Sequence record: MW394391.1
Reading direction: 5' to 3' (one strand)
DNA: 64,000 bases
Source of the DNA: Klebsiella phage vB_KpM_FBKp24
Made by a program: the position numbers and the translations under genes. Shown here one piece after another: positions 7,828 through 14,369 of this stretch. Below the pieces are notes generated by a model. It was not told the origin of the DNA. It saw only the letters and a list, made by a program, of their open reading frames with translations, and made no database searches. Every line of letters starts with the position of its first letter. The stretch's first letter is position 1.

Positions 7828-8028
7828 TTAACGAACATCATTCCTCCTTTGGTTTAATTCTGTTCTGGTCGGTTTTTCAGCATCAATAGGCTCCAACCAA
7901 AAATGATTACATTCCCTACATTCCCAAGTTATTTCATTGTCTTCCTCATCGTAGACCTGAGAGCAATTCATAGCTTGACAAATAGGGCAATCTACCCCCG
8001 TCCATTGTATTGTCATGGTTTTACACAC
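7828..8028 (-). CDS. small zinc-ribbon protein (CPIC...CRECNHFW)
   Basis: Two CxxC pairs. GTG start in the ORF track, or an internal ATG. Confidence 0.45.
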   Translation of the reverse strand: MCKTMTIQWTGVDCPICQAMNCSQVYDEEDNEITWECRECNHFWLEPIDAEKPTRTELNQRRNDVR

Positions 8029-8513
8029 ATGTATTTGGTCTGCTCCAGGAAACCCTGAGACTCATAAAATTTCTGAGCAGAAGTATTGTAAAGGTGTACC
8101 GATAAACTAACCTGATCGATAGCTAGGTGTTTTGCGAACATCCTAACCTGATTCACTAATGCTTTACCATAACCGTTACGACGATAAAGGCGTTTAACGT
8201 AAAGATAACTAATCGACATCCAGTTAACGCTACCGTTAGCGATAGGCTGCGTATATTCAACAAACCCGACTACTTCTTCTTTATTTACCGCTAAGAGGAT
8301 ATTAGTCTGGTCCGTCCAACGATCGATCAGTCTTTCCGTTTTCTTCTCGTTGGTGAGAATATCTAGGTTACTCCGGGATTTCCAGAACGTGGCCTCTTTT
8401 TTATCCATGTCATGGAACATCTCTAAAAGTTCTTTTTCGTACTTGGCGGTTTCTGGGTCTTCTGGACCGAGTAATAAAACAAATTCCATTGGTTCTCTCC
8501 TGGTTGATGGCAT
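8013..8513 (-). CDS. GNAT family N-acetyltransferase
   Basis: GNAT motif A RRNGYGKALVNQV (R/QxxGxG/A acetyl-CoA binding), about 166 aa. Confidence 0.7.
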   Translation of the reverse strand: MPSTRREPMEFVLLLGPEDPETAKYEKELLEMFHDMDKKEATFWKSRSNLDILTNEKKTERLIDRWTDQTNILLAVNKEEVVGFVEYTQPIANGSVNWMSISYLYVKRLYRRNGYGKALVNQVRMFAKHLAIDQVSLSVHLYNTSAQKFYESQGFLEQTKYMCVKP

Positions 8514-8912: not shown

Positions 8913-9671
8913 TCGTACTGACTTAGCGTCAAAGGAATTTGAGCAGTTAAATCGTACTGTAACCGCAGTGAAGATTTATCATGCTCGCTTTCCTTCGTGT
9001 TTCAGTCGCCACCGAAACACCTACTTTCTCGGCTATACGAGTTAGCTTAATTTCCAGATTTTTAATACCCGATCCCTTCTACGTTGGAGAAATGGATCGA
9101 ATAGAGGTGACGCCCCCCGGACATTTTTGCCGGCTTCTTATACCCCTTTCGCCGACGCATCGGCTGGGGTTAATGGTCTGTGGCCGCCTATTTTCGCTCT
9201 GAGGCGTAGGCCGCCGAAAATGACAGGCGTCATAATTAGTACCCCTCGGCCGATTCCGCGGCGCGTTTAACCGGCGGGTCGCCGAAGTCTTTGTCTCCCC
9301 AGAGTTACTACTGTGCTATTACACGGTAGACAAATCATTCAGGAATTGAACCTGAACTCCCTTAGCTAACAAGCCTCTACTATTGACCAGGAATCTAACC
9401 TGCACTCGCTGTAAACAATATCACTTGACTAGAGTAGTATTGTAAAGGTGGTTGATAGGTACCGAATCGAACGGCTATCTCGGGCTCCCATGTTAAGGCG
9501 CCCCTCGCATGGGAGGGGGCCTAATGCCCGCGCTTTACCTTTAAGCTAGCCTATCATTGAAAAGGTTCTCCATACCCAGTGGGTACTACCTACACCCGCT
9601 TTCGCATCATGAATAAAGAATAGCGTCATTGACGACTAAACAATTCAACGGTAGTCTACATGGAGATAATT

Positions 9672-9761
9672 TGGCAGAGAGTGAGAGATTTGAACTCTCG
9701 GTACCCTTTCGGATACATTCCCTTAGCAGGGGAACGACTTAAACCACTCATCCAACTCTCT
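9672..9761 (-). tRNA. tRNA-Ser (anticodon GCU), type II with long variable arm, CCA encoded
   Basis: Acceptor AGAGAGT/ACTCTCT, anticodon arm TTCCC-CTGCTAA-GGGAA, variable arm TGTATCCGAAAGGGTACC, T-arm GAGAG-TTCAAAT-CTCTC. Confidence 0.8.
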
Positions 9762-9769
9762 ATTAAAAT

Positions 9770-9844
9770 GCGACTCTTCCAGGACTTGAACCTGGGACCT
9801 ACAGCTTAACAGGCTGCCGTTCTAACCAACTGAACTAAAGAGTC
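9770..9844 (-). tRNA. tRNA-Asn (anticodon GUU)
   Basis: Acceptor GACTCTT/AAGAGTC (7/7), D-arm GTTC...GAAC, loop CTGTTAA, T-arm CCAGG-TTCAAGT-CCTGG. Confidence 0.85.
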
Positions 9845-9850
9845 ATTATT

Positions 9851-9925
9851 TGGCGGTGCTACGGAGAATCGAACTCCGGTCTCCTCCGTGACAGGGAGGT
9901 ATCCTTTCCGCTAGACGATAGCACC
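9851..9925 (-). tRNA. tRNA-Asp (anticodon GUC), CCA encoded
   Basis: Acceptor GGTGCTA/TAGCACC, anticodon arm CCTCC-CTGTCAC-GGAGG, T-loop TTCGATT. Confidence 0.8.
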
Positions 9926-9933
9926 TTTTTGTT

Positions 9934-10035
9934 TGGTTGTTCCCTTCCGGATTTGAACCGGCAACCTCCTGCTAAGCAGTGGGCGGCGCAGTGGCCGCCG
10001 GTGCAGGCGCTCTACCTAGTTGAGCTACGAGAACA
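9934..10035 (-). ncRNA. aberrant tRNA-like gene (about 102 nt) with a 23-nt GC hairpin insertion in the anticodon arm
   Basis: Canonical D-arm GCTC-AACTAGGTA-GAGC, T-loop TTCAAAT, terminal ACCA. Anticodon stem CCTGC...GCAGG is interrupted by ACCGGCGGCCACTGCGCCGCCCA before loop CTGCTTA. Confidence 0.4.
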
Positions 10036-10042
10036 TAGTATC

Positions 10043-10116
10043 TGGAGCAAGCAGCGAGGTTCGAACTAGGGGTACGGGGATCAAAGCCCCGGGCCTTAAC
10101 CGCTTGGCTATGCTCC
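10043..10116 (-). tRNA. tRNA-Gln (anticodon UUG)
   Basis: Good anticodon arm CGGGG-CTTTGAT-CCCCG and acceptor GGAGCA/TGCTCC. T-stem imperfect in my hand fold. Confidence 0.55.
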
Positions 10117-10124
10117 TATGCGTT

Positions 10125-10208
10125 TGGTGGGGAAGGGTAGATTCGAACTACCGAAGCCGAAGCAGCAGATTTACAGTCTGACCCATTTGACCACTCTGGA
10201 ACTTCCCC
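10125..10208 (-). tRNA. tRNA-Tyr (anticodon GUA), type II, CCA encoded
   Basis: Acceptor GGGGAAG/CTTCCCC, D-arm CCA...TGG, loop CTGTAAA, variable hairpin GCTTCGGC, T-arm GTAG-TTCGAAT-CTAC. Confidence 0.85.
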
Positions 10209-10391
10209 TGAATTTGGGGCCCGATTATTTCAGCGCTGCATTCTTTACTCTCGGGCCGAGGAGCACTATTAGTTTCTTCTCAGGGCGTATTGTTTTCCCT
10301 CTGAGACTTGCGCAATGTTTGAACAGGTTGATTGTTGTCTTAACATTCCGGAGAGAAAGTTACAATCTTTGTTCATAAGATATTGATTTAC

Positions 10392-10751
10392 TTAATTTTT
10401 GATCTGCACATCAGGATTCCCATTAACCGACAGCCAAATGTCGGCAACTAAAAGAATCTGTCCACCATACTGATTGACCTGCTGCCACCCATTCTTTTTA
10501 GCGGCAACTGTAATCATTGATAAAAATTGATTTTTCCAATGACTTTGATAAATCTGGGAATGATGAATTATTCGGCGGTTTTCAAACTTCTCGATGGTCT
10601 CAAATTCTTTCGTCGCGCTGATCATAGCAAAAACATCTTTAGACTTGATCAAATAAGCAGGGTCATTAATAGACCGATCGGAAGCTAAAGGAAGACGAGA
10701 AGAAATATGGTCAACGTCTTCTTGATTGTGTGCAAACGTTACGTCGTTCAT
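10392..10751 (-). CDS. hypothetical protein 119 aa embedded in the tRNA region
   Basis: ORF between two tRNA sub-clusters. Confidence 0.5.
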   Translation of the reverse strand: MNDVTFAHNQEDVDHISSRLPLASDRSINDPAYLIKSKDVFAMISATKEFETIEKFENRRIIHHSQIYQSHWKNQFLSMITVAAKKNGWQQVNQYGGQILLVADIWLSVNGNPDVQIKN

Positions 10752-10833
10752 TTTTACTTTTACCTTTTACAAGTTAGCGGTCTAAACCAAAATAGGAAGA
10801 CCAACAAAAACTGTGGGATGAATAATAATGAAG

Positions 10834-10907
<74 letters not shown>

Positions 10908-10912
10908 GTAGA

Positions 10913-10997
10913 TGGTGCCCAGGGCGGGGCTCGAACCCGCACGCGATAAAGCGAGGGATTTTAAATCCCTTGTGTCTGCCGATTTCACCACCTGGGC
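10913..10997 (-). tRNA. tRNA-Leu (anticodon UAA), type II, CCA encoded
   Basis: Acceptor GCCCAGG/CCTGGGC, anticodon arm AGGGA-TTTAAAA-TCCCT, long variable arm, T-arm CGGG-TTCGAGC-CCCG. Confidence 0.85.
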
Positions 10998-11002
10998 AAA
11001 TA

Positions 11003-11078
11003 TGGTGGGTCCAGCAGGTTTTGAACCTGCGACCAAGCGATTATGAGTCGCCTGCTCTAACCACTGAGCTATGGACCC
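11003..11078 (-). tRNA. tRNA-Met/Ile2 (anticodon CAU), CCA encoded
   Basis: Acceptor GGGTCCA/TGGACCC, D-arm GCTC-AGTGGTTA-GAGC, anticodon arm GGCGA-CTCATAA-TCGCT, T-arm GCAGG-TTCAAAA-CCTGC. Confidence 0.85.
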
Positions 11079-13736: not shown

Positions 13737-13793
13737 ATTGCCCTCGTTTTACAGTCTTCTACACTAAAAGACTGCACCGTAAAAAAGCATAAT

Positions 13794-13821
13794 AGAGAGA
13801 AGGGTTTAAACCCTTCTCTCT
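13794..13821 (-). terminator. intrinsic terminator (AGAGAGAAGGGTTT/AAACCCTTCTCTCT palindrome) downstream of the permuted tRNA loci
   Basis: 14-bp perfect palindromic stem, T-rich on the minus strand afterwards. Confidence 0.55.
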
Positions 13822-13976
13822 CGAGTTTGTTTGTCAAAAAGCGGTCTCTTTGAGAAAGAAACTTTTAGGGAAGAAGGGCGACGGATAAGGATATAACCAT
13901 CCTCACCGCCACCCATAGCCATTCAGCTATAAACAGAATCCAGCGCGACCTATTTCACAATAAGATTGGGTTTAGG

Positions 13977-14078
13977 TTTATAATCTAGTGCTCTACCAGC
14001 TGAGCTATCTGCCTCCAAGAAACACTCTGTGAATGTGTCCTGGTAGGCAGAGCGGAATTCGAATCCGCGACCTCTAGA
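13977..14078 (-). ncRNA. circularly permuted tRNA-like gene: 3' half (nt 39-76 including CCA) encoded upstream of the 5' half (nt 1-38), 26-nt linker
   Basis: Minus strand reads TCTAG-AGGTC-GCGGA-TTCGAAT-TCCGC-TCTGCCT-A-CCA, then a 26-nt linker, then AGGCAGA-TA-GCTC-AGCTGGTA-GAGC-A-CTAGA-TTATAAA. Acceptor 7/7 and anticodon stem 5/5 complementary between halves. Confidence 0.5.
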
Positions 14079-14159
14079 ATTCTTTCCGTAAAAGAAAGAA
14101 AGTTCAGTCCGCTATTTTACTGTCTACTCTTTATCTTTAAGCGTGTGAGGCGATAAGAT

Positions 14160-14300
14160 AAAGTTAACACTAACCATCCGAGTAGCATTATGGGTGCATT
14201 GATGACTGCGTCTACCAATTCCGCCATTCTCCCATAGTTTGGTGGGAGAAGAAAGATTCGAACTTCCAGTGAGGTCACCACACCTGCTATACGGACTAAC
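14160..14300 (-). ncRNA. second permuted-order tRNA-like element (type II-like): T-arm + TTCTCCC-A-CCA, 6-nt linker, then GGGAGAA + D-arm
   Basis: Minus strand reads GGAAG-TTCGAAT-CTTTC-TTCTCCC-A-CCA-AACTAT-GGGAGAA-TG-GCG-GAATTGGTAGA-CGC... The 3' acceptor strand and CCA precede the complementary 5' acceptor strand (7/7). Anticodon region not resolved by hand. Confidence 0.3.
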
Positions 14301-14369
14301 AATAAAGATAAAGTTGGCCTCAATCTTTATTATCAATGGGCACTCGTGAGAATACCCATTACTAACACA

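Follow-up and report, generated by a model that had tools for sequence, protein, structure and literature searches.

To our knowledge, phage transfer RNA (tRNA) genes that carry an insert have been reported once before, in uncultivated megaphages. Here we describe E1, a tRNA-shaped RNA gene of 102 nt that was located by sequence inspection on the minus strand, from position 10035 to 9934, of a 64,000-nt stretch of the genome of Klebsiella phage vB_KpM_FBKp24 (MW394391.1); this whole stretch is called the window below. The phage is a Klebsiella/Serratia jumbo phage of ~300 kb that belongs to the Siatvirus group, and since the annotation of a relative includes a nuclear shell protein, the tubulin PhuZ and split multisubunit RNA polymerases, it is regarded as nucleus-forming. 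We regard E1 as a real and maintained tRNA-derived gene of the phage tRNA operon; a companion gene built on the same plan, E2, lies 380 nt downstream of it. In E1, the anticodon loop is replaced by a longer segment containing a GC-rich hairpin. Tentatively, and from its sequence and predicted structure, we read E1 as a stable, non-decoding mimic of tRNA that would enter tRNA maturation with its anticodon end capped by a hairpin arm.

The closest described relatives of such genes are the tRNA genes with "enigmatic introns" of the Lak megaphages, which are oversized, carry a conserved insert in the region of the anticodon loop, and have no known splicing (Devoto et al., 10.1101/356790). E1 and E2 are likewise oversized tRNA genes that are not typed by bacterial-mode finders and contain a conserved insert in the loop. 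There are, however, several differences. In the Lak phages, the tRNAs concerned also occur as alleles that lack the insert, whereas no such allele was found for E1 or E2. At least one Lak insert has room for a tRNA-like sequence, whereas the inserts of E1 and E2 are much shorter, at 23-33 nt, and contain one hairpin. In addition, the Lak phages are Prevotella megaphages of an unrelated lineage, whereas E1 and E2, with their 8-bp acceptor stem, are found in a nucleus-forming Klebsiella jumbo phage.

E1 and E2 were also compared with two known classes of tRNA intron. The group I intron of the cyanobacterial tRNA-Leu(UAA) gene sits at position 34/35, and introns of this class are about 200-300 nt long, have a conserved catalytic core and end in a G. 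E2 resembles this case in that it is a bacterial-type tRNA gene in which ARAGORN places the insert at 34/35; the inserts of E1 and E2, on the other hand, are 23-33 nt long, match no intron family in Rfam, and end in A or U. In the case of E1, an insert of 23-30 nt that ends in A, an order of magnitude too short, stands against the at least ~200 nt, the Rfam-recognisable P1-P9 core and the terminal G of a group I intron. A degenerate remnant of such an intron was also considered, and was rejected because of the absence of the terminal G and of any Rfam intron match. The protein-spliced introns of archaea and eukaryotes are short, lie in or near the anticodon loop at position 37/38, and form a bulge-helix-bulge; we know of no pathway of this type in bacteria or phages. 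The inserts of E1 and E2 are likewise short, and a Tpt1 is encoded, but they are not placed at 37/38, no Sen/EndA endonuclease or tRNA ligase was recognised in the annotation and scanned proteins of a relative's genome, and a bulge-helix-bulge (two 3-nt bulges on opposite strands, 4 bp apart) is not formed in the folds of either gene.

Other RNAs share parts of the shape of E1. Species 1 and 2 of the phage T4 tRNA cluster (RNA C/D) are stable non-tRNA RNAs of ~120-140 nt that are matured by tRNA enzymes and have no known function; they do not take the form of a plain cloverleaf whose anticodon loop carries an insert, as E1 does. YrlA is a non-decoding Y RNA with a circularly permuted tRNA-like domain on which tRNA enzymes act; a loop closes its acceptor stem, and on the anticodon side it opens into the Ro-binding helix (PMC4201824; RF02553). 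E1 keeps the same acceptor, T and D shape, but it is not permuted, has a free A-CCA end, and gives no match to the YrlA model. Finally, tRNAs that depart from the 7/5 arrangement of acceptor and T stems (8/4, 9/3 and the 8/5 of tRNASec) occur in phage tRNA clusters (Mukai et al., PMC5389517). E1, for which an 8-bp acceptor and a 5-bp T stem can be drawn that are fully paired in the relative Centimanus, and E2, which reads as 8/4, recall these tRNAs in this respect; however, the anticodon loop of the non-7/5 tRNAs is a normal one of 7 nt and their variable arm is in most cases long, whereas the loop of E1 and E2 is interrupted by an insert and their variable region is short. Thus, E1 lacks the defining features of group I introns, bulge-helix-bulge introns and YrlA RNAs, and falls outside these three families.

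Structure of E1 and of its companion E2

The features of the two genes are the following.

9934-10035, minus strand: E1, whole gene, 102 nt (Rfam tRNA, 38.0 bits; ARAGORN -i; relatives)
10028-10035, minus strand: E1, 5' strand of the acceptor stem, UGUUCUCG, with its partner AGGGAACA at 9938-9945 (seven standard pairs and a G.A)
10009-10025, minus strand: E1, D-arm, GCUC-AACUAGGUA-GAGC (Rfam model; no variation among relatives)
10003-10007, minus strand: E1, 5' strand of the anticodon stem, CCUGC, with its partner GCAGG at 9968-9972
9980-10002, minus strand: E1, 23-nt insert, ACCGGCGGCCACUGCGCCGCCCA (limits set by ARAGORN)
9982-9999, minus strand: E1, GC hairpin within the insert, GGCGGC-CACUGC-GCCGCC (unique in the window; stem invariant, loop C/U)
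9973-9979, minus strand: E1, CUGCUUA, the 7 nt directly before the anticodon-stem strand GCAGG (same in 12 genomes)
9946-9962, minus strand: E1, T-arm, GCCGG-UUCAAAU-CCGGA, with a G.A as its outermost pair (Rfam model and ARAGORN)
9934-9937, minus strand: E1, encoded 3' end, A-CCA (sequence and ARAGORN)
9449-9556, minus strand: E2, whole gene, 108 nt (Rfam tRNA, 36.3 bits; ARAGORN -i; minimum-free-energy fold)

Read from 5' to 3', E1 is composed of UGUUCUCG / UA / GCUC-AACUAGGUA-GAGC / G / CCUGC / ACC-GGCGGC-CACUGC-GCCGCC-CA / CUGCUUA / GCAGG / AGGUU / GCCGG-UUCAAAU-CCGGA / AGGGAACA / ACCA. The anatomy that an earlier note on this DNA had read from the sequence (D-arm, T-loop, ACCA, anticodon-stem strands, insert and CUGCUUA) is therefore all present, on the minus strand. 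When run with default settings, ARAGORN calls the eight neighbouring tRNAs and not E1. The Rfam tRNA model RF00005, in contrast, matches positions 9938-10034 of the minus strand end to end (model positions 1-71) with 38.0 bits and E = 1.8e-5, above its gathering score of 29, and is the only family matched in the E1 region in an Rfam scan at E<=1. Its alignment takes 30 nt, ACC-GGCGGC-CACUGC-GCCGCC-CACUGCUUA, as an insertion that replaces the 7-nt anticodon loop. Thus, instead of a 7-nt loop with U33 and a purine at position 37, the strands CCUGC and GCAGG flank 30 nt. In intron mode, ARAGORN reports c[9934,10035] as a tRNA-Ser(gct) of 79 nt with a 23-nt intron, ACCGGCGGCCACTGCGCCGCCCA, in agreement with the anticodon GCU on a type-I body proposed in the earlier note. 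A tRNA is thus called only on the assumption of an insert that belongs to no known class, so that an ordinary tRNA explained by a known type of intron, which the earlier note had named as a finding against its view, was not obtained.

The body of E1 also deviates from the usual 7-bp acceptor, 5-bp T stem and discriminator-CCA. The ARAGORN drawing adds a U:A pair before the usual seven acceptor pairs, and one G.A mismatch lies at the inner end of the acceptor stem and another at the outer end of the T stem, which specifies the slight irregularity of both stems that had been noticed before; in the Rfam register the 3' end reads A73-A-CCA. An acceptor of eight pairs can be drawn for the window allele with seven standard pairs and a G.A, and all eight are standard (8/8) in Centimanus; there is no long variable arm, and the anticodon loop is disrupted.

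E2, which the earlier note does not mention, repeats this design. Its CGGGC/GCCCG stem encloses 40 nt with a bulged, GC-rich hairpin of 9 bp, GGC-CCCCUC-CCAUGC-GAGGGG-C-GCC, and is accompanied by a UGAUAGG/CCUAUCA acceptor stem, a D-arm, a T-arm and A-CCA, with the acceptor and T stems reading as 8/4. The minimum-free-energy fold of E2 is the cloverleaf. The Rfam tRNA score of 36.3 bits was obtained in a small search space, and the match was filtered out in a larger scan. ARAGORN -i reports E2 as tRNA-Pro(tgg) with a 33-nt intron and a restored loop AUUGGGA. Common to both genes are the added U:A acceptor pair, non-standard pairs at the junction of the acceptor and T stems, the discriminator A, the encoded CCA and short variable regions; the arm of E2 is more irregular than that of E1. 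The annotation of the relative PQ182779 labels E1 and E2 as "tRNA-OTHER", and in the other annotated records examined they are unannotated.

The predicted anticodon arm of E1 consists of the 5-bp stem, a 3x9 internal loop and the 6-bp hairpin, with unpaired segments that are opposite each other and not offset. When the 30-nt segment was shuffled with its composition preserved, 3.1% of the shuffles formed a perfect hairpin of at least 6 bp, and the same test gave 4.6% for the segment of E2, so that the joint probability for both hairpins is ~0.0014. An origin of the hairpin from a repeated or mobile sequence that entered a tRNA gene, be it a mimic of a CRISPR repeat, a small palindrome or a transcription terminator, is hardly credible. 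Its size and GC content do resemble those of CRISPR repeats and REP-like elements, a resemblance only; the 18-mer of E1 and the hairpin of E2 are, however, unique in the 64-kb window when up to 3 mismatches are allowed, and the 18-mer gave only single, chance matches in GC-rich genomes, and no arrays, among 185,579 bacterial and archaeal species genomes. A U-tract following the hairpin is absent, and a terminator scan of it gives no call.

The cloverleaf with the hairpin lies 3.2 kcal/mol above the unconstrained optimum in the window allele and 0.7 kcal/mol above it in the Centimanus allele. An alternative minimum-free-energy fold, in which the insert of E1 pairs with the variable loop and a T-stem strand, was rejected because a Centimanus substitution weakens this pairing, and the cloverleaf of that allele is within 0.7 kcal/mol. 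Also rejected were a pseudoknot in which the loop of the hairpin would pair with the single-stranded 3' part (CCAUG/CAUGG in E2, CUGC/GCAG in E1), which is lost in other alleles (loop UCAUAC), and a loop motif C..UGC common to E1 and E2, which other alleles do not keep.

Conservation in related phages

Both genes are present in all 12 of the Siatvirus-group genomes compared, and E1 is structurally intact in each of them; absence or degeneracy in relatives, which the earlier note had named as a finding that would speak against its view, was thus not observed. The tRNAs for Arg, Tyr, Gln, Gly, Asp and Ser, by comparison, are each absent from one to three of the 12 genomes. E2 occurs in the 11 GenBank records that have E1, and is retained although other strains have unrelated sequence in the stretch from tRNA-Ser to E2. 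The copy of E1 in KpLz_1_41 is 100% identical to that of the window, and those in 10 other records are 92-99% identical, in a tRNA cluster region that is 95-97% identical among relatives.

Four alleles of E1 are known. The 30-nt segment varies at A[C/U]C, at the last position of the loop CACUG[C/U], and at [C/A]A after the stem; these three substitutions all affect unpaired positions of the 23-nt insert, and leave the hairpin stem unchanged. In Centimanus, the T-arm has six substitutions (ACCGG-AUCAUAC-CCGGU) that spare the four CCGG/CCGG pairs. Both G.A mismatches of the window allele are replaced there by standard pairs (A-U and G-C; 49:65 is A-U), and U54:A58 becomes A54:U58. The structural support for E1 comes from the tRNA model and from these changes from mismatch to pair, and not from covariation statistics.

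More distant relatives were searched for by blastn with E1 and with the spliced forms of E1 and E2 against 50,697 phage records, by exact and gapped pattern scans of IMG/VR, and, in IMG/VR and metagenome loci, by way of the neighbouring NMT1-like protein. These searches gave no homolog of E1 or E2 outside the Siatvirus clade, with or without the insert, and no allele without an insert or with a shorter one was present in the phage records or in IMG/VR.

An accidental insertion or duplication in the anticodon loop of a dispensable tRNA, persisting because the relatives are young, could also leave a gene such as E1, and several observations are in line with such a decaying pseudo-tRNA. The relatives are close, and the conservation of E1 and E2 does not exceed that of the neighbouring tRNAs. 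The cluster is eroding, with variable tRNA losses and, in the window, a chimeric Gln/Gly gene. E1 is mismatched at two stem ends, and direct inspection shows that its insert is an imperfect 12-nt tandem repeat, GGCGGCCACUGC / GCCGCCCACUGC. We nevertheless regard decay as unlikely. Firstly, two independent genes share the insert site, the hairpin, the U:A pair, the non-standard pairs at the junction and A-CCA, and the chance of both hairpins arising is the low joint value given above. Secondly, both genes are kept in 12/12 genomes despite rearrangement of the flanks, and thirdly, the changes in Centimanus improve the pairing.

Retention or removal of the inserts

The tRNA body, the operon spacing, the encoded CCA, the retention of both genes, the turnover of the flank of E2, the Centimanus changes and the restriction of variation in the inserts to unpaired positions, with the hairpin stems unaltered, together make a tRNA-shaped RNA that does not decode our best reading of E1. 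A spacer of 7 nt separates the gene from the preceding tRNA and one of 8 nt from tRNA-Asp, which follows it; the spacers of this operon are 5-8 nt long, except across an open reading frame between Arg(UCU) and Tyr. E1 would be co-transcribed with the tRNAs and, like a tRNA, be released by RNase P and 3' trimming. The insert would be retained in the RNA, because no known route in the RNA itself or in the genome of the relative could remove it. The capped and lengthened anticodon arm may then keep E1 off the decoding pathway and away from anticodon-loop nucleases, and the "top half" formed by the acceptor, T and D arms could still engage readers of tRNA shape, among them RNase P, the CCA-adding enzyme and proteins that bind the elbow or the acceptor. 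E1 might thus serve as a decoy or adapter for a tRNA-binding factor of the host or the phage, or as a tRNA scaffold that presents the hairpin.

E1 may act alongside E2 and two further tRNA mimics. In the ~640-nt intergenic gap at 13737-14369, ~4 kb upstream of E1, a structured RNA region (~13955-14300, minus strand; folding z = -4.07) contains two circularly permuted tRNA-like modules, in the order T-arm, 3' acceptor strand with ACCA, loop, 5' acceptor strand and D-arm. A partial match to YrlA at 13983-14076 (37.9 bits) is the sole YrlA match of the Rfam scan, and the region is kept in the same 11 records as E1. The presence of these modules nearby suggests that mimicry is a plausible role for E1 as well. 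No Ro/Rsr gene is present in the annotation of the relative PQ182779. ARAGORN mislabels 14041-14125 as a tRNA-Stop(tta), and two GenBank relatives annotate a suppressor or TERM tRNA at this place.

Several observations weigh against reading E1 as a mimic that keeps its insert. In terms of conservation, the hairpin of E1 shows no covariation, because its stem is identical in all relatives, and no compensatory change from one standard pair to another was found among them. Identities of 92-100% over E1 make its conservation weak evidence, and as independent deletions are few, retention in 12/12 genomes is not compelling in statistical terms. The other observations, of which the first two concern E2, point to removal of the insert. 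After excision, E2 has the textbook tRNA-Pro loop AUUGGGA, with U33 and G37. The phage has no other tRNA-Pro, and CCA and CCU together account for 52% of its proline codons. In addition, a gene for a Tpt1/KptA RNA 2'-phosphotransferase is located at 248867-249436 of PQ182779.1 (48867-49436 of contig L141; PF01885, 148.7 bits).

These observations raise the possibility, which we consider doubtful on the whole, that E1 and E2 are protein-spliced tRNAs. According to this explanation, an endonuclease that has escaped identification would cut out the inserts, a ligase of the host or an unrecognised one of the phage would join the halves, and Tpt1 would clear the 2'-phosphate from the junction, yielding a GCU tRNA from E1 and a tRNA-Pro(UGG) from E2. 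Tpt1 is the enzyme of the last step of fungal and plant tRNA splicing. Its gene in the relative adjoins one for an HD-like phosphohydrolase, and the phage group has genes for NAD salvage and related functions (NAMPT, NMNAT, PRPP synthase and PnuC). Excision by ARAGORN -i restores 7-nt loops in both genes, CUGCUUA in E1 and AUUGGGA in E2, and the product of E2 is a normal-looking isoacceptor that the phage otherwise lacks. In E1, the 7 nt kept are invariant, and all variation of the loop segment falls in the predicted intron. The Lak megaphage tRNA introns (10.1101/356790) provide a precedent. The presence of KptA in jumbo phages, on the other hand, has been read as RNA-end repair by Iyer et al. 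(PMC7824862), and as the flanks of an insertion keep the old halves of the loop, a restorable loop in E2 is expected under every hypothesis.

Several lines of evidence speak against splicing. First, features of a group I or bulge-helix-bulge intron are missing, and the inserts end in A or U, not in G. Second, no RNA ligase, RtcB or splicing endonuclease is present in the complete PQ182779 annotation, and none was detected in Pfam scans of 10 candidates and 50 mid-sized unannotated proteins of this genome, although host enzymes and proteins of <230 aa were not exhaustively screened. An annotation as "polynucleotide kinase" in PQ182779 has no Pfam support, and an annotated "ribonuclease" is among the 50 proteins, whose pooled Pfam scan gave RNase H as the sole nuclease family. 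Third, sensible junctions differ between the two genes, being 31/32 to 33/34 in E1 and 33/34 or 34/35 in E2, so that a common ruler mechanism is not obvious. Fourth, an insert-less allele is absent from the phage and viral-contig collections.

The expected product of E1 provides a further argument. Excision would give a tRNA with anticodon GCU, a short variable arm, an 8-bp acceptor and U37 in the loop CUGCUUA. Position 37 is a pyrimidine at any junction, namely U if the 3' exon keeps at least 2 nt of the loop and C if it does not, and with a junction at least 2 nt into the loop, position 33 of the window allele is C. Bacterial seryl-tRNA synthetase (SerRS) requires a long variable arm, and position 37 of tRNAs is nearly always a purine. 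A class-I body with GCU would therefore not be a substrate of SerRS, and it fits the identity set of no other synthetase; decoding by E1 is thus unlikely. Assignment of E1 to an isotype by similarity was tried and was not diagnostic: the spliced body is about equally similar to Arg, Pro, Thr and Ile tRNAs, and the CCUGC/GCAGG-AGGU arm is found mainly in Ala and Pro tRNAs. Accordingly, the case for protein splicing is stronger for E2 than for E1. The more specific proposal that both are substrates of a protein-dependent pathway in which the hairpin insert is recognised instead of a bulge-helix-bulge, and in which the phage Tpt1 acts last, strikes us as decidedly improbable.

With regard to the three options offered in the earlier note, the evidence thus leans towards a tRNA-derived, non-decoding RNA and away from simple decay, and the small intron is left as one for which no machinery has been identified.

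Genomic setting and significance

E1 belongs to the following operon.

9672-11078, minus strand: tRNA operon, Met/Ile2(CAU), Leu(UAA), Arg(UCU), [open reading frame], Tyr, Gln (chimeric), E1, Asp, Asn, Ser(GCU) (ARAGORN, Rfam)

The tRNA-Gln(UUG) gene that precedes E1 (10043-10117, minus strand) is a chimera, of which the 5' part is tRNA-Gln and the part from the T-loop onwards is tRNA-Gly(UCC). It originated by an 81-nt deletion between two GTTCGAA T-loops, and relatives keep the Gln and Gly genes separate; its acceptor and T stems are unpaired, and its Rfam score of 26.5 is under the threshold. HNH endonuclease genes are present at differing sites in the tRNA clusters of relatives (L002, 2032-2487; L003, 2770-3231): in KpLz-2_45 the insertion takes the place of Arg, Tyr and Gln, and in Centimanus it separates Leu from Met. 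These insertions agree with the view that homing and rearrangement are concentrated in the tRNA cluster. A GNAT acetyltransferase gene (8013-8513, minus strand; PF00583, 59 bits) is located downstream of the RNA genes, at a distance of about 0.9 kb; some GNAT toxins acetylate aminoacyl-tRNAs.

The next relatives of the phage, with 66-76% protein identity, have a different tRNA cluster or a small RNA (sRNA) similar to STnc100 at this site. Full-length matches of 72-84 bits to STnc100, an enterobacterial sRNA family, were found in three jumbo-phage contigs (L007, 7404-7618; L017, 7407-7621; L019, 7053-7240), which show ~75% identity in the NMT1-like protein; STnc100 is located downstream of the gene for this protein, where the phage described here has its tRNA cluster.

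Chance encounters in viral contigs show that expansion or replacement of the anticodon arm is not uncommon among tRNA-like genes of phages. An unrelated contig contains a tRNA-like gene with a 27-nt GC-hairpin insert in an identical CCUGC/GCAGG stem (L101, c5151-5244). In three others a 21-bp hairpin takes the place of the anticodon arm (L046, c1377-1477; L069, 2226-2326; L123, 11639-11739), and other tRNA-like genes, with inserts of ~47-48 nt, are found at L123 11221-11342, L130 2132-2252, L016 8359-8478 and L008 8358-8476.

E1 and E2 are objects of the kind reported from the uncultivated megaphages, with two of them in each genome of these Klebsiella jumbo phages, which form a nucleus and can be cultivated. 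In most deposited genomes of the group both are without annotation, and the Y-RNA-like module carries the label of a suppressor tRNA. Should the inserts be cut out, tRNA splicing that depends on proteins would be found for the first time in a bacterial system, and Tpt1 of phages and bacteria would have a substrate; the tRNA supply of the phage would then be conditional on a processing step specific to the phage or to infection. If, on the other hand, the inserts stay, the phage would invest in several tRNA mimics, together with the YrlA-like modules, and host factors that read the shape of tRNA may be targets in the conflict between phage and host.

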